A DNA stretch of 42,557 nucleotides, from positions 1 through 42,557 of the forward strand of contig JBHEMM010000021.1 in assembly GCA_046262595.1 (NCBI GenBank). Reading direction: 5' to 3'. Every line of letters starts with the position of its first letter. The stretch's first letter is position 1. Position numbers: made by a program. Below, piece by piece: positions 39,001 through 42,000 of this stretch. This DNA comes from Vulcanimicrobiaceae bacterium (GTDB lineage: Bacteria > Vulcanimicrobiota > Vulcanimicrobiia > Vulcanimicrobiales > Vulcanimicrobiaceae).

Positions 39001-42000
39001 CTTCATGGCGCGGTTTGCCGGCGAACGCGGCTGCGCCCGGTGAACCGCGGAAGTTTCTTCGCCCAATCCTCGGGCATGATGGCGTCGATCGCATCGTCCA
39101 CCGTAACGATGCCGAGCATCGTGCCAGCTTCGTTTACTACGGGGACGGCGAGCAGATCGTAACGTGCGATTGCGGCGGCAACCGAGCGCGAATCATCGCC
39201 CGGCGTGACGGTGATGATCTCACTCTGCATGATGCGTTCGATCGGTGCGGCGGGGTCCGCGAGCAGCAGCGCGCGCAGCGTGAGGACGCCCAACAGCCGG
39301 TCTTGCTTGTCAACGACGTACAAATAGTAAATGAACTCGGATTCCGGCGCGATCTCGCGGATCTTGCGGATCGTTTGCTCTGCGCTGCGATGCGGATAGA
39401 TCCACGTGTAATCCGTCGTCATGAGTCCGCCGGCGGTGTCATCTTCGTACTTGACCAGTTCGCGCAGCTCGCCGGCCGTATATTCGTTCATCTCCGCAAG
39501 CAGTTCGAACTGCTCTTCGTCAGAGAGTTCTGCGAGCAGATCGGCCGCGTCATCGGAATCCATCTCCTCGATGATGTCGGCGGCGCGCTCCGTGCCGATG
39601 TCGCCGATGATCGTGCGCTGCGTATCCGCATCGAGGTGTTCGAGTGCATCGGCGGCCGTTTCATCGTCGAGCGAGTGAATGACGGCGGCGGCTTCGCGTG
39701 CAGAGAGATCGCTGATGATCTCGGCCAGCTCGCTCGGATGCAGACGCGCAAGTTTGCTTTCTTTGACCGAGAGCGTCACTTGCGCGGGTGTATTCTCACG
39801 AATCGGCGCGACGGAGTTCCAGGCGATCATCGATCGCGGCACGCTCCGGTAGATCCATGGTGTGAAACGCTTTCCGAACTGCTTGAGGCCCAGACGCCGC
39901 AGCAGGCCGCTTACGCCCACGTCGGCGGCAACCACGCGCAGCTTTCCGCCCGTGTTCGCGAGCTCGATGTCGTTGATGCGCACGACTTTACGCCCGTCCA
40001 CGTCCACGATCTGTTTGTCCAGCAGATCGTTGATGAGATACAGCGCATCCTCGTCGAGCGGCGCGGCAAGCTTTGGCGCGGCGGTCAACGCCACTGCGCC
40101 GCTGAAATCGACATCCGCCACGGTGTCCATCGGTGCGAAGCGTGGGCCTTGCGCAGTCTTGATCACCAGCCCATCGACCGCGGGGAAGACTTCGTCCGGA
40201 TTGTTAACCAGAAAGTCGGTGACTCTGCCGATCGGCAGATCGTTTACGGTCGCGCGGCGGCCGACGAGTTCGGAGATGAATCCGTCTTGGAAGGGCATTT
40301 TTTTCACCTCCGATCTAAAGGCGCTACGGCCTTGCCTGCGCGCCCCCCACCTGCGGTGGGGCCCCCACCCGGTACGGCGCGTGATGCTGCATTCTGTTTT
40401 CCGACTCCCCGAGGGCGCCGCCATGGTGCGTTGAGCCTTGCCTGCGCGCCCCCCACCTGCGGTGGGGCTCCACCCGGTACGGCGCGTGATGCTGCGTTCT
40501 GTTTTCCGACTCCCCGAGGGCGCCGCCGTGGTGCGTTGAGCCTTGCCTGCGCGCCCCCCGCCTGCGGTGGGCGCCCCTGGTACGGCGCGTGATGCTGCGT
40601 TCTGTTGCGACTCCCCAAGGGCGCCGCCATGGTGCGTTGAGCCTTGCCTGCGCGCCCCATTTGCGTAATGCCGGCAAAAGAAAAAAGACTGGCCTAAAGT
40701 TGCAGGACAGCCTCGTGCGGTCATACCCCAGTCGCAACTGCTTTGGCACCACGCATCGTAAAGCGTCCCGGCAAGGCCGCTTAGCCGCATTAGACACCGC
40801 CTTGTCTCGGCGCAGTCTGGTCTACCCGGTTGGCGTCTCTCGACGTTTCTGGGCAGCGGCTTGTGTATCGCGTGGACGCCTCACCTAGCGAGGTATCCTT
40901 ATTCTTAGTATAGGCGCCCCCGTCAACCGCCTCCGTAGGGACGCGAAAAACGGTAAGGTTTCCTGCGGCGGGCGAGGCTCATGCCCAGGGCAAGCAAGTA
41001 TTCCTTGCGGCAACGGCAATCGCTGCGCGAATCATCGCTTTAGGGCCGGCGGCATGCCGGACCGATGCGAGCGCGGCTTAACCCAACGCCGAGCTCTGAT
41101 TGAGATTCGGCAGCGTTGCCGCGCGCGAGACCAGCTGTGCGACGAGCTGAGCGTCGACTTGCATCTGCGAGGTGACGCTGATGTCGATGTTGGTCAGAAC
41201 TTGATCTTTGATAAAGTCGCTCGAGGCCTGCGCGACGTTCGTGTCGCGAATCGCCGATTCGCTTGCGAGCTGATTGACGGTTTCAAGCGATGCGTTGTTC
41301 GCGTCTTCCTGCAAGGAAACGTTCTGCGCGCCGACCGTGGCGCGCACTTGGCTGATCGCATCGATGGCATTTGATACGCGCGCCTCGGCGTCGGCGGCCG
41401 CGGCGGCATTACTCGTCGTACCGGTGACGTTGTTTTCGTAATCGACGGCCGTCGGCTGCAGAATGCTTATCGAAGAGATACCTAAGGCGCTCGTGGAAAC
41501 GCTCGGCAAGCTGATCTGAATGATACCGCCTTCGGTTCCATTTGAATTGACCTGCAAGGCTTGCCCGGTCGGAGTCGAGGCGCTCGAAGGGTCGAACGTT
41601 TCAAAAGCCATGGTGACGCCGGCGTCTTGCGCCGAGAGATTCGCAAGTTCGAAACGCAGCATGGAAAGCGCGCCGCTTGCATTGTTGATGTACAGCGGGT
41701 TGCCCGGGCCTGCGCCCTGATTTACGCCCGTTCCGGTCGCGAGCGCTCCCGTCGATATCTGTTCCGTTGCGCCGTTCGTTCCGCCGAAATTCGGATCGGA
41801 ACTGTATTGCGTAATCTTCACGTAATCGCCGGGCATGCCGAGCGGCCCGACCACGGGGTCCACCGGATTCGTACTATACGAAAGGACCTGAAACTCGGTC
41901 AAGCCGGAAACGAAGCCGCTCTGCTGATAAAAGGCGTTGTAGATGAGCGGTCCGGCGTTCGGGGAGCCGCTGCCCGTTGCGTCGTAAACGTTCGTTCCTG

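Follow-up and report, generated by a model that had tools for sequence, protein, structure and literature searches.

A MIRU-like structured repeat with a probable built-in translation-initiation cassette in one family of Eremiobacterota

Why should a GC-rich repeat stand in tandem copies between a magnesium riboswitch and the gene behind it, and why do other copies of the same repeat end directly before the start codons of unrelated genes? The window analysed here, the whole 42,557-nt stretch of contig JBHEMM010000021.1 from a Vulcanimicrobiaceae bacterium, raises this question at one locus, and copies of the element in this and other genomes of the family were used to answer it.

Results

A tandem array in the leader of an mgtE-type gene

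The array lies on the minus strand, downstream of a flagellin gene (41078..42526; Pfam Flagellin_N 3.4e-24, Flagellin_C 5.8e-6) and of an M-box (Mg2+) riboswitch aptamer (40720..40899; RF00380, 120.7 bits, E 1.3e-27, full model 1-169), which occupies the equivalent place in the leaders of 12 of 13 relatives. The aptamer is followed by a hairpin and U-run (40676..40714) that we read from the sequence as its expression platform and a putative terminator; a simple terminator scan did not call it. In the mgtE leaders of relatives, GAGGCUGUCC and a U-run also stand directly before the Shine-Dalgarno (SD) sequence. Tandem Repeats Finder reported a single array at 40329-40658 with a period of 105, 3.2 copies and 93% matches, located between the M-box terminator on one side and the native SD of the downstream gene on the other. 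Its full layout, from 40658 to 40320, is three tandem units of 101, 105 and 106 nt and a closing hairpin, in agreement with a preliminary description of three tandem copies between the M-box and mgtE.

The units differ in how much of the three-helix element (P1 to P3, described below) they retain. Unit 1 (40558..40658, 101 nt) has a degenerate P2 and gave a covariance model match of 33 bits at 40529-40632, unit 2 (40453..40557, 105 nt) one of 49.6 bits at 40419-40531, and unit 3 (40347..40452, 106 nt) one of 97.4 bits at 40314-40426. Within the array the first segment of the next unit replaces the 3' arm of P3, and the sole complete element is unit 3 together with the closing helix P3 (40320..40346, GGCGC...GCGCC), which carries GUAG in place of the usual GGAG. 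Then come the U-rich tail UUUAGAUC (40312..40319), of a type shared with the orthologues in genomes G199 and G144, and a native SD, GGAGGUG (40305..40311), which lies outside the repeat and belongs to the downstream gene, as repeat-free relatives have GGGGGUGA or GGAGGUG before the start of their mgtE-type gene. The AUG at 40298 opens a gene (39003..40298) encoding MgtE_N (8.8e-25) and CBS (1.2e-17) domains, as well as PRC, without the MgtE membrane domain, and this gene overlaps the Nramp gene that follows it (37741-39066).

Because it lies upstream of a native SD and has GUAG instead of GGAG, this array does not supply a ribosome-binding site. It is a passenger of the 5' UTR leader, in which one ancestral insertion was amplified in place to 3.3 units; G143, G144 and G199 have one copy each in this leader, and eight relatives that have the M-box have none. 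Any effect of the array on Mg2+ control would be conjecture from the sequence. The repeat creates a spurious 118-aa ORF (40304-40660). No sigma-70-like promoter was called within the array, and no Rfam 15 family matched it at E<=1 (in 38000-42557 only the M-box and a chance-level Mahella-1 elsewhere were found), as had been noted before.

A family-specific repeat

A newly built covariance model found six matches in this genome (G000) at E<=7.3e-5 and one further match at E=0.16, consistent with an earlier count of five to six copies. Outside the array they lie between the GrpE and DnaJ genes (C3:82971-83084, minus strand), between DUF1800 and DUF1501 genes (C14:28352-28470, plus strand) and, in the case of a weak copy, 28 nt before tRNA-Ser(GGA) (C49:6328-6443, plus strand). 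Five relatives hold 10-61 copies per genome, compared with six here. When the C3 copy was the BLAST query, 175 of 348 family genomes gave a match, close to the half estimated previously; the covariance model matched 48 of 71 other genomes of the family and none of 79 genomes from 20 other families of the phylum. The repeat is thus specific to one family of Eremiobacterota, as the preliminary description had it. Tandem arrays and copies consisting of the 3' half only are common, and copies also adjoin tRNA genes and occur in leaders that have their own SD.

Anatomy and a covarying three-helix fold

The element is typically about 110-125 nt long, with units of 101-135 nt overall (101, 105 and 106 nt here, 121-135 nt elsewhere). 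An optional 5' module forms helix P1 around an SD-like GGGGAG, and the core 3' module consists, in order, of hairpin P2, helix P3 and a UUUyAA tail. P3 is built of GGCGC, an internal loop, a 3-bp stem, GGA and GCGCC, with GGA motifs in the internal loop. An alignment that we made of 30 copies, drawn from 28 genomes, has 92.4% of its cells paired and compensatory changes in 8 of 23 pairs; the covariation score was reached by none of 500 shuffles, and slid controls were 37-60% paired. A larger set of 112 matches (108 distinct), aligned by fitting to the covariance model, gave 92.2% of cells paired and compensatory changes in 12 of 23 pairs, again with 0 of 500 shuffles reaching the score. The three-helix fold is therefore supported by covariation, in line with what had been proposed from fewer copies. 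An alternative from RNAalifold, in which the first GC block pairs with a G-run before P2, involves invariant columns only, so that covariation speaks neither for nor against it.

On the sense strand G-U pairs outnumber A-C combinations by 30 to 13 (two P1 end pairs left out). The composition of this strand is 38% G and 28.6% C, and its skew is never negative in the 30 copies. Across these 30 non-orthologous copies 35 columns are invariant. Copies at orthologous sites keep the core and alter the helices by compensation, with the variable parts diverging to about 60% identity even at the same site within one genus. Identity at orthologous sites is only slightly above background (0.658 vs 0.584). 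The constraint on the core exceeds the needs of an SD alone, suggesting that the element may have a function for the host or a trans-acting partner.

The element mostly ends at start codons, many of housekeeping genes

In 44 of 61 loci a start codon that opens an ORF of 35 aa or more follows the GCGCC of the last helix by 6-8 nt, at exactly 7 nt in 35 of them; the antisense control gave 6 of 61. When an exact pattern was run independently against the genomes of 185,579 species, 74 of the 120 matches had a start at a distance of 5-8 nt, and in 67 of these it was ATG. The earlier claim that the element stops 6-8 nt before the start of whatever gene follows thus holds for most loci and fails for the last copy in the window, where the AUG is 21 nt from the helix, the native SD lies between them and the start is not abutted. 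Copies that do not abut a start end in UUUAAAC without ATG, indicating that the abutting ATG is the gene's own.

A same-strand ORF starts within 30 nt downstream at 55 of 61 loci, and 50 of 59 downstream ORFs could be assigned to Pfam families, in many cases with an alignment that begins at profile position 1-3. The genes named in this way include those for S19, L14, L5, L6, L36, L17, L29, AtpA, GyrA, GyrB, MreB, PrfA, DnaJ, SufU and FliG. The set is rich in growth-related functions; its members are functionally unrelated and differ between close species. One ribosomal-protein cluster holds five copies, and atp, nuo and fli operons contain others. A frame test based on GC3, a rough one, placed a same-strand coding frame upstream at 39 of 61 loci, with the upstream stop no more than 45 nt from the 5' end of the element in 23 of these 39; at least one of the 19 'opposite-strand' calls made by this test, at the gyrB site, is wrong. 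The element is found in transcribed spacers, in the sense orientation to the next gene and locked in it, and mostly fills the gap between stop and start within an operon.

Filled and empty sites without a recognisable mobilising enzyme

Presence and absence of the element are polymorphic between species of one genus. Between S17 and L14, stop and start overlap by 4 nt in G153 and G154, where the site is empty, and in G149 the element lies exactly at this point. The junction of L2 and S19 is filled in G153 and empty in G147 and G149, four copies lie between rpoA and L17 in G153 with none in G154 or G147, and between L16 and L29 a copy in G154 corresponds to a deleted remnant of about 55 nt in G153. 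At mreB, G143 carries the element, and G000, of the same genus, has an empty site. The filled and empty orthologous sites inside the ribosomal-protein cluster bear out, with the start-codon counts above and the SD contrast below, the earlier view of a portable MIRU/ERIC-like structured repeat.

Arrays of two to five units occur in G141, G144 and G153, with a mean identity of 88% among the copies of one array. At the junctions inside an array a few bases of the 5' flank recur, which points to local amplification. In G145 a contig ends 3 nt upstream of an mgtE-like start; assemblies are probably broken by the repeat. Recent movement between loci left no trace: 0 of 1522 within-genome pairs of copies from different loci are at least 90% identical, with a maximum of 88.6%, and recent bursts were therefore rejected. 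A clustering of copies by genome was considered and rejected as well: the nearest neighbour of a copy is in the same genome for 25 of 38 copies in G141 and for only 18 of 42 in G153, and mean copy identity is 0.559 within genomes vs 0.570 between them. The 5' boundary differs between subfamilies.

REP elements are single hairpins of 21-65 bp that occur in both orientations and are tied to a Y1 (RAYT) transposase. The element resembles REP and BIME repeats as a GC-rich hairpin repeat of transcribed intergenic DNA that is often clustered, and such repeats can stabilise mRNA, but it is far longer, its orientation is locked and Y1_Tnp is absent from copy-rich genomes. The Y1 transposase family (PF01797) was found in only 9 of 348 genomes, does not track the element, and is missing from the copy-rich genera (0/3 genomes of g1, 0/18 of g2, 0/3 of g25 and 0/8 of g28); mobilisation by Y1/RAYT or IS200-IS605 enzymes was rejected on these phyletic grounds. 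In four copies inspected for terminal inverted repeats, none joined the two ends; the inverted repeats present were internal (P1, P2 and alternative pairings of conserved segments) or palindromes of the flank at the 5' edge. Direct repeats flanking four filled sites measured 0, 3, 5 and 7 nt and are inconsistent. With neither terminal inverted repeats nor a target-site duplication of fixed length (flanking repeats of 0-7 nt) at the copies and sites inspected, a MITE was rejected.

An SD motif conserved according to use, and a candidate mini-ORF

GGAG or GAAG is present in P3 in 53 of 57 distinct copies that abut a start, compared with 24 of 43 others (Fisher p=1.4e-5), and copies followed by a native SD mostly have GCAG or GUAG at this place. 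The motif is conserved according to use, which argues that P3 GGAG/GAAG serves as the SD of the abutted gene. The preliminary statement that the element brings its own GGAG accordingly applies to start-abutting copies and not to the copy in the window, with its GUAG and native SD.

About half of the copies also combine the SD-like GGGGAG of the 5' module with a start codon and an ORF of about 30 codons that ends on the start of the gene. In a set of 41 full copies in terminal position, a start codon stands 2-14 nt after GGGGAG in 21 of 43 frames that are open to the tail vs 10 of 80 other frames (Fisher p=1.7e-5, uncorrected for relatedness). An ORF ending in the tail, with an upstream or internal start, was found in 30 of the 41 copies and none in the other 11; 19 of the 30 begin at an internal start codon after GGGGAG. 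The stops of internal-start ORFs form an ATGA overlap in 10 cases, lie 3-5 nt before the start in 10 and elsewhere in 1, a tally in which some copies count with more than one candidate start. We infer from this arrangement that the mini-ORF may be translated and coupled to the gene. A peptide-coding repeat was rejected, since unit lengths are not multiples of three, the copies make use of two different frames, and the sense strand has no shortage of stop triplets (275 vs 270 antisense; shuffles 258 +/- 14). The two frames and the undiminished stops, together with the 11 copies that have no such ORF, also count against the mini-ORF.

Discussion

The reading that we favour, and consider probable, is that the element is the equivalent, in Eremiobacterota, of mycobacterial MIRUs: a repeat between cistrons that carries a translation-initiation cassette of its own. 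Its 3' end would act as the translation-initiation region of the downstream gene, the P3 GGAG preceding the AUG by about 10 nt and the unstructured U/A tail serving as spacer. In about half of the copies a GGAGG-like motif of the 5' module and a start codon would open the ORF of about 30 codons, which would cross P2 and P3 and stop on, or no more than 5 nt from, the AUG of the gene. A ribosome on this mini-ORF could melt the hairpins and then be handed on to the gene, a relay by translational coupling that would amount to a natural 'bicistronic design'. Such a cassette would permit residence before essential genes without silencing them. The repeat family would have spread long ago, with copies since gained or lost between species and amplified locally into tandem arrays.

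Known systems share parts of this picture. Mycobacterial interspersed repetitive units (MIRUs; Supply et al. 1997 as cited in PMC12548453), as outlined in PMC12548453 and PMC3184786, are repeats of about 40-100 bp that, like the present element, lie between operon genes, sense to them and at start codons, occur as tandem arrays that differ in copy number, have both filled and empty sites, and are GC-rich with internal inverted repeats. They also contain short ORFs that stop on or beside the start of the next gene, as the candidate mini-ORFs of the element do. The element differs in its Eremiobacterota host and apparently in its sequence, in its greater length (101-135 nt), its covarying three-helix fold, the canonical SD in its last helix conserved according to use, and a mini-ORF that is present in about half to three quarters of copies in no fixed frame. 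Neisseria REP2 and Borrelia IR-A/IR-B repeats (Delihas 2011, PMC3184786) resemble it as 120-150 bp sequences that lack terminal inverted repeats, contain two stem-loops and stand directly before ORFs, bringing a ribosome-binding site with them. They differ in carrying a promoter and their own ATG and heading transcription units, whereas the present element is mostly intercistronic, no promoter was called in the window array, and the ATG is that of the gene. In the synthetic bicistronic design, mentioned in PMC12548453, SD2 lies within a leader cistron that runs into the start of the gene; the order of SD1, short ORF with SD2 inside, and a stop on or next to the gene's start is the same in both, with the difference that this design is engineered and the element's layout is natural and repeated, its translation being predicted.

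Several other functions could be read into the same structure. Rather unlikely, in our estimate, is a host regulon in which the core (GGCGCCCUCGGGGAG, GGGGGCCCC, GGGGGGCGCG and the GGA loops) binds a putative family-specific RNA-binding protein or small RNA that co-regulates the translation or stability of many housekeeping genes, the regulon having been built by the spread of the repeat. The 35 invariant columns, a core that outlasts its variable surroundings even at one site within a genus, the slight excess of identity at orthologous sites, the abundance of growth-related genes behind the element and the GGA motifs within the P3 internal loop all suit such a regulon, but its gene content would vary among species of one genus, as the filled and empty sites show, and copies also sit beside tRNA genes and in leaders with their own SD. 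The SD-like motif, moreover, decays exactly where initiation does not need it, and a ribosome-binding role therefore fits better than a protein site. CsrA, named in the preliminary description on account of the GGA motifs, is a conjectural candidate for a binder. A bolder form of the idea, which we hold to be quite unlikely, combines both: a host-maintained portable cassette (SD1, mini-ORF, SD2 in a hairpin, and stop/start junction), more than just tolerated, would have taken the place of the native initiation regions in dozens of essential genes, and a common trans-acting factor would read its invariant core. Ribosomal proteins, gyrase, ATP synthase, RF1, MreB and chaperones would thereby belong to a single post-transcriptional regulon, the product of a mobile repeat with an RNA structure whose way of targeting start codons would be unlike that of any known transposase.

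A role in mRNA stability or processing of the REP/BIME type, with hairpins shielding the upstream cistron from 3' exonucleases or the new 5' end of the downstream cistron after cleavage and so tuning protein ratios within operons, accords with the intercistronic position, the stable sense-strand structure, a G-rich sense strand that disfavours Rho loading and the extra hairpins that arrays provide. It leaves the fixed distance of 6-8 nt to the start and the use-dependent GGAG unexplained, making it improbable as the main function; as a by-product of the element, mRNA stabilisation may well go together with the initiation cassette. There is only a slim chance that the element is a riboswitch or RNA thermometer sensing a common signal: a conserved three-helix fold with the SD in a helix and one copy before dnaJ would suit a sensor, but no Rfam family matches, the downstream genes are unrelated in function and differ between close species, and tandem arrays and 3'-half-only copies are common. 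Least probable of all is an intrinsic terminator or attenuator of the upstream gene, a worry raised by the preliminary description, in which P3 and the following U3-4 would halt transcription. The helix is GC-rich and 3-4 U do follow, but these run into A's and the AUG, and under a criterion of a GC-rich stem and a U-rich tract with at least 5 U in 8 the permissive pattern called no minus-strand site in 40200-41100 and none of the five element sites in L067. Five copies inside one ribosomal-protein cluster and others within atp, nuo and fli operons also speak against termination.

As a probable initiation cassette, the element would be a second, well-documented natural repeat that lands on start codons with its own translation signals, in a phylum far from Mycobacterium, and it comes with evidence rarely available for MIRUs, namely a covarying fold, exact filled and empty sites in ribosomal-protein operons and use-dependent conservation of the SD. 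For the annotation of Eremiobacterota MAGs it matters that the repeat makes spurious ORFs and inflates leaders. If the mini-ORF relay is true, the element would be a natural 'bicistronic design' and a possible context-independent expression part for GC-rich bacteria that are hard to engineer, and it would show how selfish DNA can enter essential operons.

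The array between an M-box riboswitch and an MgtE_N/CBS gene

The window is the entire contig C21 of the assembly and carries the array on its minus strand, downstream of a flagellin gene (42526-41078). Behind the M-box aptamer (RF00380, 120.7 bits; 40899-40720) come a hairpin and its U-run (40714-40676) and, after 17 nt of spacer, three tandem units (101, 105 and 106 nt; 40658-40347) and a closing helix (40346-40320). The element tail UUUAGAUC follows, then a native SD, GGAGGUG (40311-40305), and the AUG of a 431-aa MgtE_N + CBS protein at 40298. Tandem Repeats Finder reported an array at 40329-40658 with a period of 105, 3.2 copies and 93% matches, and together with our reading of the units on the minus strand this bears out the coordinates and the array described in the preliminary description. 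Over the array region, Rfam at E<=1 returned the M-box and no other family.

Three further observations concern the window. The M-box-controlled "mgtE" encodes MgtE_N and CBS (+PRC) domains only, without a membrane domain, and overlaps an Nramp-family transporter gene (37741-39066, minus) by 64 nt; the two genes (37741-40298, minus) may represent a split regulatory domain plus an Nramp-type Mg2+ transporter. The array is open in all three sense frames (40304-40660, 40324-40797 and 39003-40790, all minus; 118, 157 and 595 aa), for which we estimate a chance of ~0.1 in a stop-poor repeat, and gene callers could mis-annotate these spurious ORFs, for instance as a 5' extension of the mgtE-like gene. 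Within the flagellin gene, a weak match to the Mahella-1 sRNA (42239-42365, minus; 22.4 bits, E 0.28, gathering score 70.7) is most likely due to chance.

Among relatives, 12 of 13 mgtE-like leaders contained an M-box. The element lies between the riboswitch U-run and the SD as 3.3 units in the host genome, G000, and as one unit each in the relatives G143, G144 and G199; in G026, G142, G147, G024, G209, G027, G162 and G252 there is no element and the SD directly follows the U-run. The contig of G145 breaks off 3 nt before the mgtE-like start; the family tally behind this observation, like those of the C3-copy BLAST and of Y1 transposases below, includes some unpublished genomes. G000, G143 and G144 belong to one genus and have similar 5' junctions, which fits one old insertion followed by local amplification in G000. 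Because the internal units of the array have no 3' arm of P3, the element's last helix, we infer that unequal duplication, breaking within P3, built up the array. At the same position in a relative (L121, from G164:C1, ~1262-1488), a different G-rich tandem repeat of ~3 units of ~46 nt (GGGGGGAAACGGGGGGCC...) separates the M-box from the mgtE-like start, which makes this leader look like a repeat hot spot.

A structured repeat restricted to the Vulcanimicrobiaceae

BLAST of the array against G000 found copies before dnaJ (contig C3) and before a DUF1501 gene (contig C14). The C3 copy in turn matched 175 of 348 family genomes and 45 of 78 genera when two candidates per genome were scored, with many matches spanning the 3' half only. 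We gathered 43 copies from 30 loci, and alignment A1, which takes one copy per locus (30 copies, 28 genomes), has 35 invariant columns. Covariance model R1 gave six good matches in G000 plus one at E=0.16, and 43, 61, 25, 10 and 20 matches at E<=0.01 in five relatives. Phylum-wide sampling with R1 matched 48 of 71 other family genomes and none of 79 genomes from 20 other families, in keeping with the earlier proposal of a repeat restricted to the family. The exact last-helix pattern, scanned over one genome per species (185,579 species), matched at least 117 stretches; among the 80 matches listed, nearly all were titled Eremiobacterota, Vulcanimicrobiota, WPS-2 or Baltobacteraceae, five were depositor-labelled Binatia, Acidoferrum or Limnocylindria, and a few were titled just "bacterium" or "uncultured bacterium". 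Rows from two unpublished genomes (G223/L034 and G217/L039) are included in A1, A2 and the copy collection, and in the mini-ORF, SD-motif and 112-match structure counts below.

From 5' to 3', the consensus opens with a U-rich lead and GGCGCC-CUCGGGGAG, continues through ~22 variable nt that include a GCARC motif, GGCGCC-AUGAGG and a run of five G's to hairpin P2 and helix P3 (GGCGC, a 3x3 internal loop, a 3-bp stem capped by a triloop, GGA, GCGCC), and closes with U3-4 and then A's. The structure tested comprised P1, in which the two GGCGCC blocks pair, together with P2 and P3. In A1, paired cells make up 92.4% and both sides have changed in 8 of 23 pairs; none of 500 shuffles reached the covariation score, and slid controls paired at 37-60%. 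For 112 model-aligned matches (108 distinct), an alignment that leans to the model, the values were 92.2% of cells, 12 of 23 pairs and again 0 of 500 shuffles, in line with three helices kept by compensatory changes, as first claimed. Covariation was never seen in the outer five pairs of P3. RNAalifold favours an alternative fold in which the first block pairs with the G-run, supported by invariant columns only. The sense strand is G-rich (38% G vs 28.6% C), and its excess of G-U over A-C (30 vs 13, two end pairs of P1 excluded) is weak evidence that it is the folding strand.

Position at start codons and a probable ribosome-binding site in the last helix

Flanking sequence was examined for all model matches in two copy-rich genomes, G141 (one contig) and G153, together with a few congeners, which gave 61 loci with an array counted as one. 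A start codon opening at least 35 codons lay 6-8 nt past GCGCC in 44 of these loci (at exactly 7 nt in 35), compared with 6 of 61 on the opposite strand read outward from the element's 5' end, confirming that the element usually stops 6-8 nt before the next start; 55 of 61 had a start codon within 30 nt. Pfam families were found in 50 of 59 downstream ORFs, many aligning from the first profile positions, and include ribosomal proteins S19, L14, L5, L6, L36, L17 and L29 as well as AtpA, ATP synthase epsilon, GyrA, GyrB, MreB, RF1, DnaJ, SufU, FliG, FliH, FlbD, SRP54, SMC and protein kinases; one ribosomal-protein cluster of G141 holds five element sites. Among 120 matches retrieved by the independent pattern scan, 74 had a start at 5-8 nt (67 ATG, 5 GTG, 2 TTG), 42 of the 74 had an A directly after the start codon, and copies that abut no start still finish with UUUAAAC-like tails, which indicates that the AUG is the gene's and not the repeat's. 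A few copies adjoin tRNA genes (C49 in G000; L069 and L070 in G141).

A rough GC3 frame test assigned the upstream gene to the same strand at 39 of the 61 loci, with its stop no more than 45 nt from the element in 23 of those 39. A helix followed by U's could also be read as the terminator of the upstream gene, but a simple terminator scan called no site at P3 in the window or at the five elements of the ribosomal-protein cluster, which argues against this reading. At the nuoM-nuoN junction of G141 (L073), the putative coding frame of the upstream gene crosses the entire element and stops on a UGA overlapping the nuoN AUG, which would add a ~40-aa repeat-encoded tail to the upstream protein.

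The best evidence that P3 supplies a ribosome-binding site is that its motif is conserved according to use. In the four bases before CGCC of 100 distinct 3' modules, GGAG or GAAG occurred in 53 of 57 start-abutting copies vs 24 of 43 others (Fisher p=1.4e-5), the latter becoming 24 of 36 without seven fused array junctions that the pattern parsed imperfectly; for GGAG alone the counts were 44 of 57 vs 21 of 43 (p=0.003). These values support the claim that the element brings its own GGAG to the next gene. Most copies that precede a native SD have GCAG or GUAG, namely those at mreB (two genomes), L029, L034 and three of four mgtE leaders, the window's included.

Many copies also hold a candidate ORF that would relay translation across the element. 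At three of four filled sites (S17->L14, L16->L29 and L2->S19), the old AUG at the 5' flank opens a 41-44-codon ORF that crosses the element and, in our reading, terminates on the new AUG or 1 nt short of it. Of 41 terminal full copies, 30 have an ORF, opened either upstream or internally, whose stop lies in the tail. In 19 copies, some of them with several candidate starts, the ORF starts 2-14 nt past an SD-like GGGGAG, and its stop falls on an AUGA overlap in 10 cases, 3-5 nt short of the AUG in 10 and elsewhere in 1; a start after GGGGAG falls in the open frame in 21 of 43 cases vs 10 of 80 for the other frames (p=1.7e-5, kinship ignored). Against a translated mini-ORF, however, 11 of 41 terminal full copies have no tail-ending ORF, the copies use two different frames, array periods are not divisible by three, and the sense strand is not depleted of stop triplets relative to the antisense strand (275 vs 270; shuffles 258 +/- 14). 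On these sequence patterns, a mini-ORF relay is plausible in a subset of copies.

Known repeats offer comparisons. In its treatment of MIRUs, a 2025 review (PMC12548453, citing Supply 1997) describes them as apparently mobile and inserting at start codons, with the MIRU ORF coupled at -4 spacing, and notes engineered use of leader ORFs. Passages in Delihas 2011 (PMC3184786) describe MIRUs as 40-100 bp units with ORFs overlapping neighbouring genes, and attribute a promoter, an RBS and an ATG to the REP2 repeats of Neisseria and the IR repeats of Borrelia. Full-text searches on Eremiobacterota intergenic repeats and on MIRU start-codon coupling turned up no description of the present element family.

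Insertion, mosaicism and age

Junctions were read in a 19.9-kb ribosomal-protein region of G153 and five congeners, where coding DNA is ~83% identical. S17->L14 is a bare 4-nt stop/start overlap in G153 and G154; in G149 the element is wedged there, flanked 5' by the old overlap and 3' by a new AAAUGA, which form a 7-nt direct repeat. L2->S19 is filled in G153 and empty in G147 and G149 (UAAUG overlap), rpoA->L17 holds four copies in G153 where G154 and G147 have short spacers of unrelated sequence, and L16->L29 is filled in G154 with a ~55-nt internally deleted remnant in G153. G000 has mostly short or overlapping junctions at sites filled elsewhere. The mreB site is empty in G000 and filled in G143 of the same genus. 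Direct repeats flanking four filled sites measured 7, 5, 3 and 0 nt, no terminal inverted repeats were found in the four copies examined, and Y1 transposases occurred in 9 of 348 genomes, none from the copy-rich genera. At the empty SufS-SufU site of G000 (C15 ~3490-3516), ..UAUGAGCGCGUUUUAAUG.. resembles the element tail GCGCC-UUUUAA-AUG, and may be what a lost copy left behind or a native target that looks alike.

The 5' boundary of the element varies between subfamilies. Two loci of G153 (L092 ~1010-1050, L093 ~1243-1300) have 3'-half copies fused to a further hairpin module (GAAUUGCUGCGUCGUAACGCAGCAAUUC), so the family is a mosaic with interchangeable 5' modules. Before sufU and fliG of G141 (L064 and L065), the element's first 21-30 nt (UCUCCCCGGCGCC...) are tandemly repeated two to three times upstream of a full copy. 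A second small repeat of ~60-70 nt (GCGACCAGGA..GCAUG..CACAGGAUGUGC..) is nested in the P3 loop of L022 (~1575-1650), L086 (~1040-1130) and L061 (5' flank of its array). It sits at the loop's CUAG with a UAG on either side, and resembles a MITE targeting CTAG.

Copies within an array are on average 88% identical (at least 90% in 31 of 50 pairs), compared with a mean of 56% and a maximum of 88.6% for different-locus copies of the same genome, where none of 1522 pairs reached 90%, and a mean of 57% between genomes. Same-junction copies between genomes are slightly more alike (0.658, n=25) than the background (0.584 +/- 0.106), and in their alignments the core is intact, the variable parts are scrambled and the helices are altered by compensation. 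From these identity levels and the intact core we conclude that the family is old, with many insertions predating genera, and that the core is under selection in place, which fits a working initiation region and leaves room for a trans-acting partner. The element is a genuine structured repeat of MIRU type, confined to one family, that appears to carry a built-in SD and, often, a putative coupling mini-ORF. The window's array is a passenger, amplified locally, in a leader under riboswitch control.
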